Notes: generated by a model not told the origin, from the letters alone. 64,000 bases of DNA from Vicinamibacteria bacterium (GCA_965199715.1 OZ241322.1:512001-576000), one strand, 5' to 3'; numbered from the stretch's first letter, positions 16,792 to 24,779 are shown. A program made the numbers and translations.

Positions 16792-18309
16792 ATGGGCGAC
16801 GGCGGAGCGACGATCGGCTACGAGGCCGAGCTCTGGGCGATGGCGGAAGAGTTCCGCGTCTCCATGGAACCGGCCGAGTACAAGCACGTCGTCCTCGGGT
16901 TGATCTTCCTGAAGTACATCTCCGACGCGTTCGAGGAGCGCCGCGCCGCGTTGGCCGCCGAGCACGGCGACGTGGTGGCCGAGGATCGCGACGAGTATCT
17001 GGCCGACAACGTCTTGTGGGTCCCATCCGCGGCTCGGTGGGCGAAGCTCAAGGCCGCGGCGCGGCAGCCTGGGATCGGCGAGACCGTGGATCGAGCCATG
17101 GACGCGATCGAGCGGCAGAACCCGAAGCTCAAGGACGTGTTGCCAAAGGGTTACGCGCGCCCTGCCCTCAGCAAGAAGGACCTCGGAGGCCCTATCGACA
17201 TCGTCAGCAACATCCGGGTGGGGGACGGCGACGCCCGCTCCCGGGACGTGCTCGGCCGCATTTACGAGTACTTCCTTTCCCGCTTCGCGAGCGCCGAGGG
17301 AAAGAAGGGCGGCGAGTTCTACACGCCCCGTTGCATCGTCCGGCTGCTGGTCAAGATGCTGGAGCCCTACTCGGGGCGGGTTTACGACCCCTGCCGTGGC
17401 TCGGCGGGCATGTTCGTGCAGTCGGTTGAGTTCCTGCGGGCGCACTCCCGAGGCGACGGCGCCGCCATCAGCACCTATGGGCAGGAGTCCAAACACACGA
17501 CGTGGCGGCTCGCGAACATGAACCTCGCCATTCGGGGAATCGAAGGCCAGATCGCCCACGGCGACAGTTTCGGCAACGACCGACATCCCGACCTGAAGGC
17601 CGACTGCATCCTCGCCAACCCGCCGTTCAACCTCAAGAAATGGGGCGGCGACCAACTGACCGAGGACCAGCGGTGGCAGTGGGGAGTCCCGCCCAAGGGC
17701 AACGCCAACTTCGCGTGGGTCCAGCACATGGTCCACCATCTCGCCCCCGGCGGCACGGCGGGATTCGTGCTGGCGAACGGCTCCATGTCATCGGCGCAGT
17801 CGGGCGAGGGCGAGATCCGGAAAACGCTGATCGAGGCGGGTCTCGTGGAATGCATGGTGGCGCTGCCGGGGCAACTGTTCTACTCGACGCAGATCCCGGC
17901 GTGCCTCTGGTTCGTGGCGCGGGACCGCCCCCGATCCGGCGAGGTTCTCTTCATCGACGCCCGCAAGCTGGGCCGCATGGTGGACCGCACCCACCGGGAG
18001 TTGACCGACGACGAGATCGCCCGAATCGCAGCGACCTACCGAGCGTGGAGAAAGGGCGACAGCGCCTACGAGGACGAGCCGGGCTTCTGCCGCAGCGCCC
18101 CACTCGACGAGGTGCGCAAGCACGACCACGTGCTGACGCCCGGCCGGTACGTCGGGGCTCCGCCGCCAGAGGACGACGGCGAGCCGTTCGACGAGAAGAT
18201 GCGCCGGCTCGTCGGCGAGCTCAAGGAGCAGCGGGCCGAGGCGGCGAGGCTGGATCAGGCGATCGAGCGGAACCTCCGGGCGCTGGACTTCTGGGACGGC
18301 CCGGCGTGA
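16792..18309 (+). CDS. hsdM: Type I restriction-modification methyltransferase subunit M (orphan, possibly decaying)
   Basis: [23 protein letters not shown], motif [11 protein letters not shown], motif [14 protein letters not shown]. Confidence 0.92.
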
Positions 18310-18335
18310 CGTTTGGATTGCGCTTTCGTCCCTAG

Positions 18336-18450
18336 AGTGCGACACAACGCTCGTTGCATGGCGCAAGTGCGAGACAATCCAGTTTGCGTCGCACTTATAC
18401 GCTCAAAACGCAATATAATCGCCGTTGCGTTGCAAGAGTGCGAGATAACG
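18336..18450. promoter_or_regulatory. Operator-like repeat array and TATAAT box upstream of fic
   Basis: AGTGCGA(C/G)R(C/T)AA at 18336, 18366, 18437 and inverted at 18382-18395; TATAAT 18414-18419. Confidence 0.55.
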
Positions 18451-18467
18451 ATCAGCCGCGCCCCCTG

Positions 18468-19580
18468 ATGGTGCCGGTCACCTACCAGACGGGCCGGTTC
18501 CCCCCTGACCACCGCCTCGATTGGCCGCGTCTGGTCCCGCTTCTCGGCCCTGCCGTCGCCGCCGTCGCCCGGTATGACGGCATCATCGCGGCCATCCCCA
18601 ATCCGGACGTGTTGCTCGCCCCGCTCGGGCTGCAGGAGGCCGTGCTGTCCTCCCGCATCGAGGGAACGCAGGCGACGCTCGGCGACGTGCTCGAGTACGA
18701 AGCCGGGCACGAGCCGGAATCCCCGACCCGAAAGCTGGACGTACAGGAGGTCCTGAACTACCACCTCGCGATGCAGCGGGCGGTGACCCTGCTGAAGGAC
18801 CTTCCGCTCTCCCAACGCGTCCTTCGCGAGACGCACCGAGTCCTGCTGGACGGAGTGCGCGGCGACGGCAAGGCGCCCGGGGAATACCGAGTCGTTCCGA
18901 ACTGGATCGGCCCACCGGGGCGCTCCATCGAGGAGGCGACGTTCGTGCCGATCGATGCCGGAGCGCTGCCGGACGCGATGAGCGCTTGGGAGGCTTACAT
19001 GCATTCGAACGCTCCCGATCGTTTGGTGCAGATGGCCATCCTGCACGCCGAGTTCGAGGCGCTCCACCCCTTCCTTGACGGCAATGGACGGCTCGGACGG
19101 ATGCTGATTCCCCTGTTCCTGTGGCGGCGCGGACTGATCGGCGCACCCTCGTTCTACATCAGCGCGTGGCTCGAGGCCCGCCGCAACGACTACTACGAGA
19201 GACTGCTGGCGGTGTCGCGAGACGACGACTGGACGGGCTGGTGCGAGTTTTTCCTGGAGGGAGTGCGGGCGCAGGCGGAGGACAACCTGGCTCGGGCCGA
19301 GAGCATCCTCACGCTCTACGAAGGGATGAAGCGCCGCATGGCCGAGCTGACCCGATCGCGCTACGCGATCCACGCGCTTGACTGGATCTTCCGCTACCCC
19401 ATCTTTCGGAGCACCCGCTTCGTCGCCGAAGCCGGCATCCCGTCGCACTCGGCCTGGCGCATCCTGAAGACCCTGCGTTCGGCGGGCGTCGTCCGCACGC
19501 TGGTCGCCGGAAGCGGACGGCGTTCGCCCATCCTGGATTTTCCAGAGCTCAGGCGGATCGCCGAGGGGAACCGACCATGA
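18468..19580 (+). CDS. Fic family protein (Fic_N + Fic + C-terminal HTH; class II with intramolecular inhibitory motif)
   Basis: HPFLDGNGRLGR Fic motif; SSRIEGT inhibitory motif. Confidence 0.92.
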   Translation: MVPVTYQTGRFPPDHRLDWPRLVPLLGPAVAAVARYDGIIAAIPNPDVLLAPLGLQEAVLSSRIEGTQATLGDVLEYEAGHEPESPTRKLDVQEVLNYHLAMQRAVTLLKDLPLSQRVLRETHRVLLDGVRGDGKAPGEYRVVPNWIGPPGRSIEEATFVPIDAGALPDAMSAWEAYMHSNAPDRLVQMAILHAEFEALHPFLDGNGRLGRMLIPLFLWRRGLIGAPSFYISAWLEARRNDYYERLLAVSRDDDWTGWCEFFLEGVRAQAEDNLARAESILTLYEGMKRRMAELTRSRYAIHALDWIFRYPIFRSTRFVAEAGIPSHSAWRILKTLRSAGVVRTLVAGSGRRSPILDFPELRRIAEGNRP

Positions 19581-20718
19581 GACCCACCGACGCCCACATC
19601 GAGCGCCAGTTGCGGCTGGGAGAGGGACAACCGTTGGGCGTTCCACCGCAGCGCATGCGCCAGCGATCGCCTCGCCGACGAGATCGGCGCGTTCGCCAAT
19701 GAGGACGGCGGCGTACTGCTGTGCGGCGTCACCGACTGCGGCGAGGTCGTCGGAATGTCCCGCGGGCAACTGGATTCCCTCGAGCGTCAAATGGTCGAGA
19801 TCGGCGAGAACTCGATCCGACCGCCGCTCCCGCTCTTCATCACGCGGCGGGAACTCCACCCCGGCAAGGCGTTCCTCGTGGTCGAGGTCCCACGGGGACG
19901 CACGCTCCACGAGAGCCCCGGCGGCGCGTTTCGGCGAACGGGTAGCTCGAAGCGGCGCATGGGCTCGGACGAACGGCTCCGCTTGGCGCAGCGCCGGGCT
20001 AAGGCGCGTTTCGCGTGGTTCGACCGTCAGCCCGTGCCCAGCACGGGGTTCCGCACGCTGGAGGAGGAGCTGTGGCGGCCCCTGATCGGCGATGAGGGAG
20101 CGACGAATCCCGAAGACGCCCTGCGGCAGTTAAACCTGGTGACCGAGGACGAAGCTGGAGCCTCGCGGGCCTCCGTCGCCGGAGTGTTGCTCTGCGCCGA
20201 GAAGCCCCACACATGGCTGACGCAAGCCCGGATCGTCGCCACCTGCTACGAAGGCGGCGATCGCGCCTCGCGCCAGTTGGACGCGTTTGAGATCACCGGC
20301 CCGCTGCCCTGTCAGATCAGTGACGGGATGCACTTCGTGCGCCGCAACGTGCGCATGGACCCGCCGCAGTACAGCCTGCGAGCCGTATTCGAGGCCGTCG
20401 TGAACGCGGTGGCGCACCGGGACTACTCCATCAAGGAGCGCCGCATTCGCCTCTCCATGTTTCGTGATCGTCTGGAGCTCAGTTCTCCGGGCGAAATGCC
20501 CGAACGGCCAGCGACGCGCAACGAGACTCTGACCTCGATCCTCCGTCGCACGGCGGTCGGCAGCGTCCACGGCGCGGGAGAGGCGTTCCTTCATGGGCGT
20601 CAGCGGCGACGGCATTCGCATCATCCAGCGGGAGACCGCCGATCTCTCCGGCCAGGAGGTGCGGTATCGCCTCGTGGACGGCAGGGAACTGCAAGTGACG
20701 CTGCCCGCCTCGACATGA
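19577..20718 (+). pseudogene. AlbA_2 (Schlafen-like) + HATPase_c_4 protein, two frameshifts
   Basis: MRPTDAHIERQLRLGE / DNRW..DEIGAFANEDGGVLLCGV..FEAVVNAVAHRDYS..SPG / FMG..GDGIRII..ELQVTLPAST*; frame changes near 19625 and 20580. Confidence 0.8.
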
Positions 20719-20870
20719 CCGCACCCCTCCACTACCGCCCGGGCGCCTTCCCGCCGGATGACCGCATCGACTGGGGGCGCCTCGTTCCGCTGCTCGGCCC
20801 CACCGCCGCAGCCATCGGCCGCTACGACGGCTTCCTGAGTGCCTGTCCGAACCCTGAGGTACTCCGAGAA
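20715..20870 (+). pseudogene. N-terminal stub of a second Fic paralog
   Basis: MTAPLHYRPGAFPPDDRIDWGRLVPLLGPTAAAIGRYDG..PNPEVL aligns with the first about 50 aa of the Fic at 18468. Confidence 0.8.
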
Positions 20871-21029
20871 GCCGTCGCCGAGTCGGAGATCCACCGCTTC
20901 GGGACCTGGTACAAGTGCCTTTGGAAGGCGACGCGCACGAAAATCCGTAACGCTGGGGTACCAACCCGCCGACCGATCCACCTTGATCGACCTAATGGAT
21001 CGCAGCGCGTACGACTTGGTACGGGTTGG

Positions 21030-21713
21030 ATGACCGCCGCCACCCAGGCCCGCCCACGAGCATTCGAGGAAGTGGAGCGGCTCCCACGCTGCCCGGACGT
21101 CGTCCACGCCGCACGAAAGCGGGGCGTTCGCGAAGTCGTCCACTTCACGACCATCAGCGGCCTCATCGGGATTCTGGCGAAGGGCGCCGTGCTGAGCCGT
21201 GCACGGCTGGAGGGAGACAAGTACCTTGAGTACGTGTGTCGACCGAACGCACCCGTTCGGAAGGACGAGGCGTGGCTGGACTACGTGAGCCTTTCCGTCA
21301 GTCGCATCAACGACTGGATGTTCGAGCACTCCGAGCGCTGGCAGGTCAAGAATGACAACCCGTGGGTGGTCCTGGCCTTCGATCCGGCGCTCCTCGGCGA
21401 CCCCGGTGTGGTGTTTGCGACCACCAACAACATCTACCCGGCGTGCCGCCGGGCCGAAGGCCTCGTCGGATTCGAGGGCCTGTTCGCGGAGTCGGTCGCC
21501 GGGCGGTACGGAAAACTCCACGACCGCGAGGAGAAGCCCCGAAGCTGGCCGACGGACCGGCAGGCTGAGGTGCTCTATCCGGGTCAGGTATCGTGCCGGT
21601 ATCTCCTCCGCGTTGACGTGCAGCGGGAGGAGACGCTGGATGTCGTTGCTGGTCTCGAGGGCACTCTACGAGTGAGCGTGCCGGTTCGACATACACCGGC
21701 GGTATTCCAATGA
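21030..21713 (+). CDS. darT: DarT-family (DUF4433) ssDNA ADP-ribosyltransferase toxin, DarT1-like
   Basis: VVHFTT..L.GIL..G..LSR, DYVSLS, WMF, WVVL, F.TTN, PTDRQAEVL with catalytic Glu. Confidence 0.82.
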   Translation: MTAATQARPRAFEEVERLPRCPDVVHAARKRGVREVVHFTTISGLIGILAKGAVLSRARLEGDKYLEYVCRPNAPVRKDEAWLDYVSLSVSRINDWMFEHSERWQVKNDNPWVVLAFDPALLGDPGVVFATTNNIYPACRRAEGLVGFEGLFAESVAGRYGKLHDREEKPRSWPTDRQAEVLYPGQVSCRYLLRVDVQREETLDVVAGLEGTLRVSVPVRHTPAVFQ

Positions 21714-23254
21714 CCAGCAAGGGTTTGTTCGTGAGACACAAAGCCCCGACACTTGCTGGACGCGACGTGGGCGGCGTGCTGGGCCGCGTCGAGCGGTCGG
21801 CCCTCTGGGCCGCCTACGGCGACGCCCTCGGTTGGATCAGCGAACTGACGAACGCCGCTGGCCTGCGGAAACGCACCGGCGGAGCGCCGCTCGACGAACC
21901 GATCGCTTGGGAGCGTCACATCGGCGGCCGATCGGGGGTCACCGTTCCCCTTCCCCGAGGCTGCTACTCGGACGACACGCAGTTGCGCCTCGCCACGGGG
22001 CGAGCGATCCGACCCGAGGGTTTCGACGTCGAGGCATTCGCGAAGGTCGAGCTTCCCGTGTGGCTTGGTTACGGACTCGGCGGTGGGAAATCCACAAGCG
22101 CGGCCGCCGCCCAGCTCACGAGACGCAATCCGGCGTGGTGGAGCAACCGCTTCCGGGGATGGACCCGCTCCGGCGGAAACGGCGCGGCCATGCGCATCCA
22201 GCCACACGTGTGGGCGTCACGCTCTCCGGAGGACCCGGAGTCCTATTTGCCGGATGTCGTACGGAATTCAGTGTGCACCCACTCCCATCCCACCGGGCTT
22301 ATGGGAGCCGTCCTGCATTCGCTTTGCGTGGCCTATTCCACAGCGACCGGCGAGGTACCGTCCCCGAAGCAACTACCGACTCTTCGTGAACAGACGGCGC
22401 GGGTGCCGGGACTCGTCGCCCGAGACGACGAACTGCGCTACTGGCGAGCGGCCTTCCAGCAAGAGGAAAGCCGCTTCGACTCGGCGTGGGCGCGAGCGTG
22501 GGACGAGGTTCAGCAGTCCGTCGAACACGTCGCCGCCTGCCGCAACGGCTCGCAGGGCGTGGACGGTTATGAGGCCATCGTGCAGGCTCTGGGACTGCGC
22601 GAACGAGAGCGCCGGGGCAGCGGAATCCTGACGGCGGTGGCCGCGCTCGGTTTGGCATGGTGCGAGGATCGGCCGGCGGAAGCCATGCGGATCGCGGCGA
22701 ACGCGGTCGGCACCGACACCGACACGATCGCGTCCATGGCGGGCGCGATTCTCGGGGCCACGGCGGACGCCGACCCGCCGTTGGAGGTGCTTGACGGCCC
22801 GCTGATCCGTTCCGAGGCGGTCCGTCTGGCAAGGATCGGGGAGGGTGAGAGTCCCGCGAGTCATCCCTACCCCGACCTCCTGCATTGGACGGCCCCCAAG
22901 CACCGAGCCGAGGCGTTGGAGCGGACGAAGGACGGAGGGCTCCGTGTGCTTGGCCTCGGTCCCGCCCGGCGGCTGGAGGGAAACCCGCCCTTCGTCAACG
23001 GCACGTTCCAGTGGCAGTGGATCCGGCTGGACTTCGGGCAGACGCTCCTCATCAAGACCCGTAAGGGGGAGCCCGAGGCCCCCCAAGAGAAGAGGGGCCT
23101 GCAGGAGACGATCGCCTACGTCTCGGAACATATTGACGACGATCGGATCGTCGGACAGGCGCTGCGCAAGGTCGCGCGCAAGGGCACCCACGGCGGGATT
23201 GCGGGCTTCAGCTCGGCGCTGATCGACCTGCTGCGCGCTCACAAACCGGACTGA
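21710..23254 (+). CDS. ADP-ribosylglycohydrolase (ARH/DraG family) with about 130-aa C-terminal extension; putative antitoxin
   Basis: AAYGDALG, YSDDTQL, GNGAAMRI, THSH, GTDTDTIASMAGAI metal-binding motifs; ATGA overlap with darT. Confidence 0.9.
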   Translation: MTSKGLFVRHKAPTLAGRDVGGVLGRVERSALWAAYGDALGWISELTNAAGLRKRTGGAPLDEPIAWERHIGGRSGVTVPLPRGCYSDDTQLRLATGRAIRPEGFDVEAFAKVELPVWLGYGLGGGKSTSAAAAQLTRRNPAWWSNRFRGWTRSGGNGAAMRIQPHVWASRSPEDPESYLPDVVRNSVCTHSHPTGLMGAVLHSLCVAYSTATGEVPSPKQLPTLREQTARVPGLVARDDELRYWRAAFQQEESRFDSAWARAWDEVQQSVEHVAACRNGSQGVDGYEAIVQALGLRERERRGSGILTAVAALGLAWCEDRPAEAMRIAANAVGTDTDTIASMAGAILGATADADPPLEVLDGPLIRSEAVRLARIGEGESPASHPYPDLLHWTAPKHRAEALERTKDGGLRVLGLGPARRLEGNPPFVNGTFQWQWIRLDFGQTLLIKTRKGEPEAPQEKRGLQETIAYVSEHIDDDRIVGQALRKVARKGTHGGIAGFSSALIDLLRAHKPD

Positions 23255-23257
23255 CCC

Positions 23258-23869
23258 ATGAACCTCATCGTCTTCGGAGCCACCGGCAAGACCGGGAAAC
23301 ACGTCCTCAAGGCCGCGCTCGACCGGGGAGCCGAGGTGACCGCGTTCGCCCGCTCGCCGCAGAAGCTTGACGGATTCGAGGGTGTCCGTATCGCGGAAGG
23401 CGACGTGCTGGACCCGGAGTCGGTCGCGGCGGCGATTCCGGGACACGACGCCGTGATCGTCGCGCTCGGGAGCGTCAACCTGAAGGACGCGACGACGCTC
23501 TCCGCCGGAACCCGGAACGTGCTCGCCGCCATGAACCGCCACGGAGTGCGGCGTCTCGTCGCGCTCTCCGCCGTCGGCGTCGCCGAGAGCTGGGGTCAGC
23601 TTCCGCTGCTGCCCAAGCTGCTGTTCCGAACGATGCTGCGGAACGTCCTCGCCGACCACGAGGCGCAGGAGGCGCTCGTCAGGGACAGCTCGCTCGACTG
23701 GACGATCGTCCGCGCCGCCATCCTGAAGGACGGCCCGGCGACCGGCGAGGTCACCGCCTCGAACACCGGCAAGGTGGGCAATATCCAACGCGCCGACGTG
23801 GCCGCGTTCCTCGTCGCCGCGGCAACCGAGGGGACCTACCGGGGACAGACGATCTCGATCACTTCCTGA
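23258..23869 (+). CDS. NAD(P)H-binding flavin reductase-like (BVR-B / atypical SDR)
   Basis: FGATGKTG, GDVLD, LDWTIVR, RADVA. Confidence 0.88.
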   Translation: MNLIVFGATGKTGKHVLKAALDRGAEVTAFARSPQKLDGFEGVRIAEGDVLDPESVAAAIPGHDAVIVALGSVNLKDATTLSAGTRNVLAAMNRHGVRRLVALSAVGVAESWGQLPLLPKLLFRTMLRNVLADHEAQEALVRDSSLDWTIVRAAILKDGPATGEVTASNTGKVGNIQRADVAAFLVAAATEGTYRGQTISITS

Positions 23870-24779
23870 CGCCGGGAACCCCGATTCGCTCAAGAATCGT
23901 CCGCAGTTCCTCCCGCTCCGAAGCATCGAGGCTGCGGGTGGGGAGCCGGCTCGGACCGCCTGTTCTTCCCGTGAGCTCCAGCGCCGCGTTCACGACCGGG
24001 CTCTCCGCCCCGGTGCGCCGCCACATCCGGATCCGAAAGGCGTACCACGGCCAGTTCACCCGGGTCAGCAGCTCCTGCGCCGCCCGGTACTCGCCCGCCT
24101 CCATCAGCCGAAAGACCTCCAGATCGTGCTCGGGCCAGATCATCGCGAGATGGGTGATGTATCCCCGGCCCCCGAGCATGTGCGTCAGCGCCTGCGCCCC
24201 GAAGTTGTCGATGACCGCGACGCGATCCCGGAAGCGCTCGATCCCGCGCTGGTACTCGAAGGCCCCCCGCGCCGTGGACCACTTGAGCGCAAGGCACCGG
24301 GGCAACGCGACCAGCCGCTCGACGTCGTCGAGCGTCATGTCGTAGCCCTCCCAGTGCGTGTTGTAGATCATGATCCCGAGAGTGCTCGTGGCCTCATGCA
24401 CCGCCTCGAACACTCGAAAGAGATCATCGGGCGACGGTTCGTAGTAGTAGCCGGGAGCGAGCTGGACGCCCCACGCGCCGATCTCCTCGGCGAAGCGCGC
24501 CATCTCGACCGAGACGCTCGGGTTCGTGTCCTGCGCGCCGACCACCACCGGGACGCGCCCGTCCGCCGCCCGGACGACGGTCTCACTGACCGCTTTCCGC
24601 TCGTCGAGCGAGAGCATCGGGAAGTCGCCTCCGGCGCCGGCGGCGAGCAGCGCCCCGCTTCCCGAGACGATTCCCCGGTCCACGACGTACCGCACGTTCT
24701 CGCGGATCGCGTCGTGGTCCACGCTCAGGTCGTCATGGTAGTGGGTGATGACCGGAATCAGGGGGCCGCAGATCGCCAT
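23859..24779 (-). CDS. Dihydrodipicolinate synthase / N-acetylneuraminate lyase family aldolase
   Basis: GAGGDFPMLSLDER, GRVPVVVG, MIYN, Schiff-base Lys in LKWS. Confidence 0.85.
   Translation of the reverse strand: MAICGPLIPVITHYHDDLSVDHDAIRENVRYVVDRGIVSGSGALLAAGAGGDFPMLSLDERKAVSETVVRAADGRVPVVVGAQDTNPSVSVEMARFAEEIGAWGVQLAPGYYYEPSPDDLFRVFEAVHEATSTLGIMIYNTHWEGYDMTLDDVERLVALPRCLALKWSTARGAFEYQRGIERFRDRVAVIDNFGAQALTHMLGGRGYITHLAMIWPEHDLEVFRLMEAGEYRAAQELLTRVNWPWYAFRIRMWRRTGAESPVVNAALELTGRTGGPSRLPTRSLDASEREELRTILERIGVPGVRK

Follow-up and report, generated by a model that had tools for sequence, protein, structure and literature searches.

Do two overlapping genes, one for a DarT-type toxin and one for an ADP-ribosylglycohydrolase (ARH), constitute a defence system in their own right, or are they what is left of a larger one? 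The genes lie in a stretch of 64,000 nucleotides (here called the window) of a Vicinamibacteria bacterium (GCA_965199715.1, OZ241322.1:512001-576000), and a preliminary description had taken them for a new, third DarT architecture consisting of only the transferase and the hydrolase. In the best explanation of the data presented here, the locus is most probably a remnant of a DarHTG system, in which a deletion took most of darH and fused the stump to a fragment of a Fic gene, and left DarT and DarG3 intact. The features of the locus are as follows.

16801..18309, + strand: HsdM-like type I restriction-modification methylase gene (Pfam N6_Mtase, E-value = 5.2e-106; HsdM_N, 8.1e-24)
18354..19580, + strand: Fic/DOC-family gene, intact (Pfam Fic_N, E-value = 2.2e-25; Fic, 1.2e-16; GC3 0.81)
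19755..20700 (right boundary approximate), + strand: degraded ORF with a partial HATPase_c_4 match (RecG-C-terminal-like regulator), forming the front of a spurious 652-aa frame
20715..20891, + strand: second Fic gene fragment of ~65 N-terminal codons, adjoining the helicase stump (tblastn)
20917..21033, + strand: darH stump, the last 37 codons of a UvrD-like helicase, followed by Gly and a TGA stop (tblastn, profile)
21030..21713, + strand: darT, intact, for a 227-aa DarT-family ADP-ribosyltransferase, the predicted toxin (Pfam DarT, 8baq match, invariant residues)
21710..23254, + strand: darG3, intact, for a 514-aa ARH-fold ADP-ribosylglycohydrolase with a C-terminal extension, the predicted antitoxin (Pfam, AlphaFold2, Foldseek)
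21776..22840, + strand: catalytic ARH domain of DarG3, residues 23-377 (secondary structure, pLDDT, invariant residues)
22916..23062, + strand: small beta domain of DarG3, residues 403-451, conserved (six strands in both models)
23099..23239, + strand: C-terminal three-helix bundle of DarG3, residues 464-510 (helices 464-473, 478-491 and 494-510)

Translation of the window DNA gives a frame of 227 amino acids plus stop at 21030-21713 and one of 514 amino acids plus stop at 21710-23254, both on the + strand, and the darT stop (21711-21713) and the ATG of the ARH gene (21710-21712) share an ATGA overlap, as had been described. The ORF listing contains the second frame as it stands (514 aa, 21710..23254, +) and encloses darT in an ORF of 652 aa (19755..21713, +); the earlier remark that the toxin is hidden in a spurious frame is thus correct, the front of that frame (19755-20700) being a degraded ORF. 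All of the motifs named beforehand were found in the translated proteins: HFT (residues 38-40), YVSLS (85-89), WVVL (112-115) and PTDRQAEVL (174-182) in DarT, and GDALG (37-41), SDDT (87-90), GNGAAMR (156-162) and DTDT (336-339) in the ARH protein. The HMM search that had been suggested agreed with the assignment, PF14487 (DarT) matching residues 38-226 of the 227-aa protein with profile positions 2-200 of 201 (E-value = 1.1e-21; 77.9 bits against a cut-off of 22.5), and PF03747 (ADP_ribosyl_GH) matching residues 34-351 of the 514-aa protein (E-value = 3e-35; 122.7 bits against a cut-off of 26.2). These matches are both far above chance.

Six residues of DarT (H38, F39, R77, S89, N133 and E180) are invariant in the alignment of 28 sequences, at least 90% of which also keep R57, D79 and Q178. 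A sequence search of the PDB (phmmer) found a sole solved relative, E. coli C7 DarT1 (8baq, E-value = 8.5e-8), and matched no DarT2 structure. The residues reported as essential in the DarT1 paper correspond to H38, F39, R57, R77, D79, S89, N133, Q178 and E180; H17, F18, R52, D54, S63, N104 and E152 of DarT1 are H38, F39, R77, D79, S89, N133 and E180 here, the equivalence of R77 and D79 having been re-read by eye in a part of the phmmer alignment that contains gaps. The positions with which DarT1 binds the base and phosphate of DNA are kept as well (N104 as N133, Q150 as Q178). Across 30 helicase-linked DarTs, this catalytic set is present in all 30 at the His, Phe, Arg, Ser, Asn and Glu positions and in 28 at the Asp position. 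Two columns distinguish these proteins from macrodomain-linked ones: that of Ser89 (Ser in 30/30 helicase-linked, Tyr in 13/14 macrodomain-linked) and that of Asp79 (Asp in 28/30 and 0/14, respectively), whereas the N133 column does not discriminate between the classes, Asn being found also in 11/14 macrodomain-linked DarTs. The suggestion that the toxin is closer to the DarT1 clade is therefore upheld, with 8baq as the sole solved relative and the DarT2 Tyr replaced by Ser in 30/30. Because the catalytic set is DarT1-like, the target base is likely to be guanine (N2), and the kept catalytic residues make both enzymes look active.

In DarG3, D38, S87-D88-D89, G155-G156-N157-G158-A159, M161-R162 and D336-T337-D338 are invariant in 28/28 sequences, and the SDDT- and DTDT-type motifs are what we take to be the sites holding two metal ions in the ARH family. 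The AlphaFold2 model of the protein has a pLDDT of 90.1, and Foldseek placed it next to MJ1187, ARH3, ARH1 and DraG at E-values of 2e-9 to 2e-7, with a probability of 1.00 and TM scores (target) of 0.67-0.79 to 1t5j, ARH3, ARH1 and DraG. The beta domain and the C-terminal region had no Pfam match, and Y387, P388, W437 and G443, near the beta domain, are invariant in the alignment. A separate model of the C-terminal region (pLDDT 85.4, pTM 0.49) gave no match at E <= 0.001 in a Foldseek search of the PDB and a search of the ESM Atlas with this region gave none; VIA-align against 48,161 chains returned generic three-helix-bundle matches only (model residues 102-155, Z <= 7.2), which barely cover the beta domain. 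The linker before the three-helix bundle, a stretch of low complexity with the lowest conservation in the protein, is shorter in the window than in the homologues (514 aa in total vs 509-610 aa in 27 homologues). The complex prediction for DarT with full-length DarG3 scored 0.04 (mark 0.32), which speaks neither for nor against binding.

An ARH homologue comes after DarT in 31 of 32 related loci, the 32nd being cut and broken, and a gene for a UvrD-like helicase of ~470 aa lies directly upstream of DarT in all 32, the match being a single tblastn segment in 27 loci and broken into 2-3 pieces in five. The pairing expected from the neighbourhood survey is thus kept, but the form of the family is a three-gene one. 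A 4-base NTGA overlap joins the DarT and ARH genes in 19 of the 30 loci listed (L031 left out), and a broken DarT or ARH gene was seen in L013, L014, L015, L020, L028 and L032. The helicase-DarT order recurs in an E. coli locus, a Salmonella-plasmid locus and two genomes of the window's taxonomic family. Judged by record titles, the three-gene module exists in Pseudomonadota, Acidobacteriota, Chloroflexota, Actinomycetota, Spirochaetota and Planctomycetota, and it is also plasmid-borne. The operon of E. coli AR_0128 (locus L069) is labelled in RefSeq as '3'-5' exonuclease', 'DarT family protein' and 'ADP-ribosylglycohydrolase family protein', the first of these being a UvrD-like protein of 465 aa. 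The window DarT is 41% identical to its DarT (E-value = 6e-50) and DarG3 is 38% identical to its ARH protein (4e-104), while the helicase of the window's nearest relative is 40% identical to its helicase (5e-118). In short, the window has an intact, translationally coupled darT-darG3 pair with homologues in the E. coli, the Salmonella-plasmid and 32 other helicase-DarT-ARH operons. In the tree, the window DarT is nested inside the helicase-linked clade (SH-aLRT 99), beside L002, and the loss of darH is therefore secondary; helicase-linked and NADAR-linked DarTs are grouped at an SH-aLRT of 82-86 only, in a quick tree with long branches. In a sample of 401 genomes of the window's phylum, 16 of 24 ORFs downstream of DarT encode a macrodomain and two an ARH protein.

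What remains of the helicase gene in the window is its 3' end. The tblastn matches of the helicase are limited to 20917-21027, where residues 448-484 of the L002 helicase are aligned with 65% identity (E-value = 1.1e-8 in the set of loci, 3.6e-11 locally), and a profile of 16 helicases matches the stump at positions 429-464 of 465. The stop of the stump and the ATG of darT overlap as ATGA, and the stump is spanned by an ORF at 20839..21033 in the ORF listing. With a darH of roughly 485 codons, about 447 are missing; the UvrD-like DarH that a DarHTG system would need directly upstream of darT is represented by 37 C-terminal codons only. In the rest of the genome (93% complete), the 16-helicase profile found no other darH copy, with partial matches of <= 38.9 bits only, and other UvrD-family helicases are present. 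To the left of the stump, 20715-20891 matches residues 38-102 of the Fic protein encoded at 18354-19580 (tblastn, 54% identity, E-value = 1.3e-18). The HATPase_c_4 match in 19755-~20600 (residues 229-275, profile positions 2-60 of 89) scored 25.1 bits, under the cut-off of 26, and a DNA contig of another run has two extra bases behind 20577, the point where this match ends. The neighbours are thus indeed broken, as had been noted, although it had gone unrecognised that the piece at 20917-21033 is the 3' end left over from a helicase gene.

DarHTG (Liu-DS3) of E. coli was published on 8 April 2026 in Nucleic Acids Res (PMC13069673). [quoted passage not shown] The window resembles it in the identities to the E. 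coli helicase-DarT-ARH operon given above (AR_0128/L069, which is equated with Liu-DS3 by matching description only), in the UvrD-like helicase directly upstream of DarT in close relatives, and in the ARH-like protein encoded directly downstream, whose model best matches MJ1187 and ARH3. It differs in that DarH is lacking save for 37 codons, so that the system is not complete, and in that the host's phylum is not that of E. coli. Because DarH is reduced to these codons and no second copy was found, we file the locus as a DarHTG remnant, and because DarHTG with DarG3 was published in April 2026, the DarT-ARH pairing is not claimable as a discovery.

In the mechanism that we propose, DarT would use NAD+ to ADP-ribosylate a base of ssDNA, most likely at guanine N2, and such a modification would block replication. 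The two-metal ARH domain of DarG3 would strip the ADP-ribose and keep the cell alive, in the manner of an enzyme-type (type IV) antitoxin. We infer that DarT and DarG3 form a toxin-antitoxin pair, a view indirectly supported by the failure to obtain a DarG3 mutant of the E. coli system, and that the pair probably persists because it is addictive: the loss of darG3 before darT would be lethal, and this is the proposed reason why both genes are intact among broken neighbours. Since the published defence needs the ATP-binding residues of DarH, the window copy probably no longer defends against phage. No match to DarG3 at E <= 1e-5 was found by tblastn in 50,697 phage records, in which phage-borne counter-defence genes were sought.

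Could the two genes suffice by themselves, with DarH dispensable or its role taken over in trans by a helicase of the host? This reading of the pair as a self-sufficient defence or toxin-antitoxin system ('DarTG3') is possible but doubtful. Both genes are intact with all catalytic residues, the genome carries other UvrD-family helicases, and the canonical DarTG1 and DarTG2 defend with two genes in the portions of the literature covered. In addition, a distant lineage (L067) has a divergent DarT and an ARH protein (30% identity) with an NOV_C protein upstream and without the helicase, and this pair suggests that a two-gene form can be viable in its own right. Against this stand the helicase gene beside DarT in 32/32 relatives of the clade, the stump, which is the mark of a deletion rather than of an evolved two-gene design, the decaying neighbourhood, and the loss of defence on mutation of the DarH ATP-binding site in the passages of PMC13069673. 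The decay could also be taken further, such that the pair would be incipient pseudogenes that lost their promoter with darH, fell silent and are too recent to have decayed. A scan for sigma-70-like promoters in 20300-23500 found 0 sites vs 0.2 expected, which says little for the window's organism; pieces of several genes make up the DNA upstream, the helicase is split in 5/32 loci and DarT or the ARH gene is broken in several relatives, and DarG3 here is without the long linker of its homologues. This reading we regard as unlikely, the ORFs of 227 and 514 codons being open with every invariant residue of the family kept, and the linker being of low complexity and less conserved than any other part of the protein. 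Contigs from RNA libraries may count on the same side: those of two metatranscriptome runs (one study) cover 30/30 bins of 18000-24500 (depth about 0.2-12), one of 444 bases (21624-22067) spanning the DarT-DarG3 junction, although these contigs carry neither strand nor level, span the broken neighbours equally and may include DNA carry-over.

It is distinctly improbable that the DarT-like enzyme modifies protein or RNA, with the ARH protein reversing a protein (e.g. arginine) or RNA modification. The ARH fold is known above all from enzymes for protein-linked ADP-ribose, the structural neighbours of DarG3 include ARH1, DraG and the ART-ARH effector-immunity pair of Listeria (8za7), there are weak NCBIfam DraG and Tri1 matches, and the consulted passages of the DarHTG paper (PMC13069673) give no biochemical data on the target. 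But the transferase is clearly of the DarT family with the base and phosphate residues of DarT1 (N133, Q178), in relatives it comes with a DNA helicase-like protein as obligatory partner, and both characterised DarT classes modify ssDNA, as stated in parts of PMC11543638 and PMC5179494. Least probable by far is the reading of the preliminary description, that of an undescribed architecture of just DarT and ARH. PADLOC-DB 2.0.0 (2023) has no model matching the ARH partner (0 families for DarG3 and two homologues), and the reviews and papers up to February 2026 name, in the parts covered, DarTG1 and DarTG2 only. However, DarT with an ARH-like DarG3 has been in print as DarHTG since 8 April 2026 (PMC13069673, in part), and the conserved form of the family has three genes, the helicase gene preceding DarT in 32/32 loci, so that neither the novelty nor the two-gene architecture stands; a pair catalogued before was one of the refuting outcomes set beforehand, and it applies. 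ARH-type neighbours of the DarT-type ART family may reportedly have been noted as early as 2012 by De Souza and Aravind. The portion of Schuller et al. 2023 covered (PMC11543638) credits that work with macrodomain and NADAR neighbours.

The DarHTG remnant can also be compared with the other known systems. DarTG1 combines DarT1 with a NADAR antitoxin, DarG1, and ADP-ribosylates guanine N2 of ssDNA (Schuller et al. 2023, PMC11543638, in part). DarT1 (8baq) is the solved structure closest to the window DarT by sequence, and the two have in common the strand-1 His-Phe, an Arg-x-Asp pair (R52/D54 of DarT1, here R77/D79), the glutamate of QAE and the Ser in place of the Tyr of H-Y-E. This situation is different in that the antitoxin has the ARH fold (PF03747) instead of NADAR, the ancestral operon includes a helicase, the helicase-linked DarTs stand in a clade of their own on a long stem, and M71 of DarT1 is not conserved, the matching column being M, Y, F or L. 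DarTG2, a DarT2 with the macrodomain protein DarG2 that ADP-ribosylates thymidine (Jankevicius et al. 2016, PMC5179494, in part), has in common with the window pair the toxin superfamily and Pfam family, an enzymatic antitoxin and an extra C-terminal part on it, whereas neither window protein has a Macro match and the Tyr of H-Y-E (Y71 of DarT2) is Ser in 30/30 helicase-linked DarTs. The statement that the window has neither a NADAR nor a macrodomain gene was borne out, the sole matches in the genome being at C1:249 kb and C1:1.74 Mb; the window is C1:512001-576000, so that the NADAR match is about 284 kb away and the Macro match is the one at 1.74 Mb. In DraT-DraG and other ART-ARH pairs (8za7, Tri1), an ADP-ribosyltransferase gene likewise adjoins a gene for an ARH-fold hydrolase, which undoes the transferase's modification, and the structural matches of the DarG3 model include DraG and 8za7; the transferases of those pairs, however, are of the R-S-E type and act on protein arginine, in contrast to the DarT-family enzyme here, and the window scores are far under the NCBIfam cut-offs (DraG, 24.8 vs 337 bits; Tri1, 15.3 vs 490 bits). 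The helicase of the relatives matches PADLOC 'NERD+UvrD' (E-value = 2e-23) and Gabija GajB (4e-18), but the matches are partial, these systems have other partner genes, and the window itself lacks the helicase.

The locus is a natural dissection of DarHTG, in which the helicase is deleted and toxin and antitoxin are still intact, and it fits a model of DarT-DarG3 as a self-maintaining core with DarH as a defence-specific addition. The residue comparison predicts guanine rather than thymine as the target and so bears on whether an ARH fold can erase base-linked ADP-ribose. The ARH enzymes characterised to date have protein, PAR or phosphate-linked ADP-ribose as their main substrates in the sources consulted, and the table of a 2026 review has, in the part covered, no ARH entry for base-linked ADP-ribose. 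The passages of PMC13069673 likewise name neither the base modified by DarT nor an activity of DarG3 on DNA. The N2-guanine link is a guanidine-like N-glycosidic bond, chemically akin to that of ADP-ribosyl-arginine. We put forward tentatively, as a bolder proposal that may well turn out otherwise, that DarG3 is the first ARH-fold enzyme with a nucleobase-linked ADP-ribose substrate (likely N2-guanine in ssDNA), and that the remnant reveals DarT-DarG3 as a stable addictive core to which DarH was added as a phage-sensing or targeting part.

GC3 is 0.79-0.80 for darT and darG3 vs 0.88-0.93 for the flanking core genes; a filter of GC3 > 0.80, set for core genes, drops both and was discarded as a test of genuineness. 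A DarG3 homologue was found in 0/3 genomes of the same genus and 2/24 of the same family, and, because of this rarity and the low GC3, a foreign origin of the locus is counted as supported. The same gene arrangement is found in DNA contigs of two studies, either of which may be the source sample of the window, one being identical and the other having five substitutions and one 2-base insertion. The HsdM-like gene (16801..18309) marks the left end of a lower-GC3 accessory island, with a core malic-enzyme gene to the left of the methylase.

The darT-darG3 locus is a truncated member of a known three-gene anti-phage system, DarHTG, of whose helicase gene, darH, only a 3' stump is left in the window. 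The genes in and around the locus are as follows (window positions).

Left flank: malic-enzyme gene, core
16801-18309, + strand: HsdM methylase gene
18354-19580, + strand: Fic gene, intact
Within 19755-20700, + strand: regulator-like ORF of the HATPase_c_4 type, degraded
20715-20891, + strand: Fic fragment directly 5' of the stump (N-terminus; 54% identity with the intact Fic over its residues 38-102)
20917-21033, + strand: darH stump
21030-21713, + strand: darT (toxin)
21710-23254, + strand: darG3 (ARH-fold hydrolase, antitoxin)
Right flank: NAD(P)H-binding protein gene, core

The window has a high G+C content (0.66-0.76), and its plus-strand ORF listing gives a 652-aa ORF (19755..21713) and a 514-aa ORF (21710..23254). 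Translation of 21030-21713 yielded 227 aa and that of 21710-23254 yielded 514 aa, each with a stop codon, and thus the two genes overlap as ATGA. The smaller protein matched the Pfam family DarT (PF14487; E = 1.1e-21, 77.9 bits) over almost the entire profile, and the larger one matched ADP_ribosyl_GH (PF03747; E = 3e-35) over residues 34-351. These identities agree with the preliminary description, which had read the ORFs as a DarT and an ADP-ribosylglycohydrolase from motifs, every one of which is present in the translations. PADLOC, also proposed there as a check, gave a weak DarT match for the toxin (2e-7) and no match for the hydrolase, and NCBIfam yielded only DraG and Tri1 matches, both far below threshold.

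When one genome per species was scanned, 32 loci with a DarT relative (40-69% identity) were found, in genomes titled as Gammaproteobacteria, Alphaproteobacteria, Betaproteobacteria, Acidobacteriota, Chloroflexota, Actinomycetota, Spirochaetia and Planctomycetota. The pairing of DarT with an ARH, for which such a neighbourhood survey had been suggested, is kept: a hydrolase homologue lies immediately 3' of DarT in 31 of the 32 loci, and the exception (L032) is broken and cut by a contig end. The NTGA overlap of the two genes was present in 19 of the 30 loci listed for this count. In many loci, the flanking-ORF listing also contains a co-directional ORF of ~470 aa that ends at the start of DarT. 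Sixteen of these upstream proteins, when aligned, showed 38-66% identity and Walker A (GSGKT), DEAQD and HSAKGLEFDH motifs; Pfam recognized UvrD_C, UvrD-helicase and AAA_19 in the ~470-aa proteins, whose top PADLOC matches were 'NERD+UvrD' and GajB. By tblastn, the helicase is directly 5' of DarT in all 32 loci; 27 loci show it as a single segment, and L004, L014, L020, L028 and L032 have it in two or three pieces. The darT-darG3 pair is two thirds of a conserved three-gene operon. Split or shortened genes occur in helicase-DarT-ARH loci of metagenome-assembled genomes (L004, L013, L014, L015, L020, L028 and L032); the DarT of L014 is interrupted by ~840 bases, and L015, L020 and L028 have frameshifts. 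These may represent either common decay of the system or assembly errors.

A full-text search combining DarT, UvrD and ADP-ribosylglycohydrolase returned a single paper, 'Systematic discovery of bacterial anti-phage systems through a protein domain-centric strategy' (Nucleic Acids Res, 8 April 2026; PMC13069673). In the excerpted text of this paper, the E. coli system Liu-DS3 is named DarHTG, and DarH is described as a UvrD-like helicase without the 2B domain. According to the same excerpts, DarHTG protects E. coli against T4, T7, T5 and SSL_2009a by an abortive-infection-like response in which DarT and the DarH ATPase are needed, the construction of a DarG3 mutant was not achieved, and the system occurs in <0.5% of E. 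coli genomes (PMC13069673). With the operon of a Vibrio relative as a query, we found matches in 21 of 5426 complete E. coli genomes (0.39%), in a gene annotated as ADP-ribosylglycohydrolase family protein. In AR_0128, the one of the 21 that was inspected, a 465-aa '3'-5' exonuclease' (UvrD_C by Pfam) is followed by a DarT family protein and an ADP-ribosylglycohydrolase family protein, with IS elements and a YobI-like NTPase in the flanks; the proteins of this locus are WP_000699006.1, WP_000151475.1 and WP_001087212.1. Because its architecture fits the published description, by which alone it is likened to Liu-DS3, this operon is taken to be of the DarHTG kind; a Salmonella plasmid has the same three genes. 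The AR_0128 products are homologous to the DarT (41% identity, E = 6e-50) and DarG3 (38%, E = 4e-104) of the window and to the helicase of its nearest relative (40%, E = 5e-118). Hence, of the new DarT-ARH system that had been proposed, the pair itself is real, but the system is the known DarHTG (PMC13069673), and the window's copy is truncated. The DarH-type gene is called '3'-5' exonuclease' by RefSeq in AR_0128 (L069, 3727-5124) and 'helicase' by GenBank in the Salmonella plasmid (L070, 2907-4304), although the architecture is identical; both loci lie between IS elements and adjoin a gene for a 1299-aa YobI-like P-loop NTPase. DarG3-like genes were found on eight plasmid records (Streptomyces 3, Cereibacter 2, Salmonella 1, Nostoc 1 and Shinella 1), three of them typed as conjugative; the Salmonella record was the one inspected.

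The helicase match in the window is limited to 20917-21027, where 37 residues align with residues 448-484 of the L002 protein at 65% identity. The stump ends with ...DLVRVG and a TGA stop (21031-21033), which overlaps the darT ATG at 21030 as ATGA; intact relatives have this junction too. When a profile of the 16 helicases was searched against the 2.66-Mb, 93%-complete genome, only the stump was recovered, besides partial generic UvrD-family matches of up to 38.9 bits. The helicase, DarT and hydrolase occur together in two genomes from the window's taxonomic family, apparently those of L011 and L012, and a search with the window's DarG3 found no homologue in three genomes of the same genus. 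A quick maximum-likelihood tree, built from 51 DarT sequences, unites the helicase-linked DarTs in one clade (SH-aLRT 99) with the window's DarT nested inside it, beside that of L002; therefore, the loss of darH is secondary. Single DNA contigs from two studies, either of which may come from the source sample itself, span 18000-24500, one being identical and the other differing by five substitutions and by two bases inserted behind 20577. This rules out an assembly artefact as the origin of the truncated arrangement.

darT and darG3 lie at the end of a ~6.5-kb stretch whose GC3 is lower (0.79-0.81 versus 0.88-0.93 in the flanking core genes); this stretch is a decaying defence island. The 2-base insertion, an extra GA, is located exactly at the end of the partial HATPase_c_4 match, which suggests that, compared with a close strain, the window's strain has a frameshift in the regulator-like gene. 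Among the ORFs scanned from the HsdM gene to 23.3 kb, no hsdS or hsdR was recognized, and this type I methylase gene may have been orphaned as the island decayed.

Residues invariant in 28 aligned DarT homologues are H38, F39, R77, S89, N94, W112, FATTNNIY (129-136), R141, R166, T175, A179, E180, Y183 and P184. A sequence search of solved structures matched only the E. coli C7 DarT1 (8baq, E = 8.5e-8) and none of the DarT2 structures. The DarT1 active-site residues H17, F18, R35, S63, N104, Q150 and E152 correspond to H38, F39, R57, S89, N133, Q178 and E180 of the window's protein, and R52-x-D54 corresponds to R77-K78-D79 by manual re-reading of a gapped phmmer stretch. In an alignment of all 51 DarTs, position 89 is Ser in all 30 helicase-linked sequences and Tyr in 13 of the 14 macrodomain-linked ones, and position 79 is Asp in 28/30 and 0/14, respectively. 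Positions 38-39 are His-Phe in 30/30 helicase-linked DarTs, whereas the macrodomain-linked ones have mostly His-Ile/Leu and never Phe at 39. Asn133 of the helicase-linked DarTs does not discriminate between the classes, because it is shared by 11 of the 14 macrodomain-linked ones. By this residue pattern the window's toxin is DarT1-like, and its target is likely to be guanine N2.

The AlphaFold2 model of DarG3 (pLDDT 90.1, pTM 0.85) has three parts: an ARH domain (residues 23-377), a six-stranded beta domain (403-451) and a three-helix bundle (464-510). Foldseek placed MJ1187 nearest to the catalytic domain (E = 2.3e-9, TM 0.79 of target), followed by ARH3, the Listeria ART-ARH pair 8za7, ARH1 and DraG. 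DarG3 appears to be active, since D38, S87-D88-D89, GGNGA (155-159), M161-R162, Q164-P165-H166 and D336-T337-D338 of this domain are invariant in 28 sequences. The C-terminal module is also conserved (Y387, P388, W437 and G443 are invariant), and searches with it yielded neither a Pfam family nor an informative structural neighbour. The window's protein is missing most of the low-complexity linker that joins the beta domain to the helical bundle (about residues 452-463; 23060-23100), and has 514 aa as compared with 509-610 aa (mostly 546-610) in 27 aligned homologues. The family is large, with E < 1e-176 for every one of the best 120 clusters, and the sole name among them from any source is 'ADP-ribosylglycohydrolase family protein'. 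A single 805-aa protein from a metagenome contig (P0011) contains both PF14487 and PF03747 with 62% identity to DarG3, and represents a DarT-DarG3 fusion of natural origin or the product of a gene call reading through the ATGA overlap.

Within the window's phylum, 27 of 401 sampled genomes had a DarT match. The 24 downstream ORFs scanned comprised 16 macrodomain partners (one, L056, in a genome flagged as unpublished), three DarT1-associated NADAR partners, two ADP_ribosyl_GH partners, one DUF1156 partner and two without a match. Of the two ARH cases, one comes from the L006 genome of the species-level scan again (identical row). The other, L067 (genome G084, C212:14512-18057), has a very divergent DarT, which scores 79 bits in Pfam but gave no tblastn match to that of the window, and then an ARH with 30% identity to DarG3, with a NOV_C-domain protein and no helicase 5' of DarT. 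It looks like a second, independent, helicase-less DarT-ARH lineage.

DarT would ADP-ribosylate single-stranded DNA, probably at guanine, and the ARH domain of DarG3 would erase the mark. Without DarH, the remnant would no longer defend, and the pair has probably persisted because a cell that lost the antitoxin would die. An autonomous two-gene system would have a parallel in L067; with the helicase gene kept beside DarT in all 32 related loci and the DarH ATPase needed in E. coli, we consider it rather unlikely. Silent genes heading for decay would suit the surrounding island, and appear quite improbable beside two complete reading frames with conserved catalytic residues. A protein or RNA as the target would suit the presence of ARH1, DraG and 8za7 among the structural neighbours of DarG3; with a toxin of the DarT family whose active site is DarT1-like, it is very unlikely. 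The target base, the action of the ARH on base-linked ADP-ribose and the role of the C-terminal module of DarG3 are all testable.

A single DarT is encoded in the window's genome, which also carries a second, ordinary ARH at 189 kb. Its NADAR match (249 kb) and its macrodomain (1.74 Mb) are both distant from DarT. The NADAR match, the only one in the genome (C1:249158-249486), is split over two neighbouring pieces whose open frames differ (profile positions 44-106 and 109-160), which suggests that this gene is frameshifted or mis-assembled.
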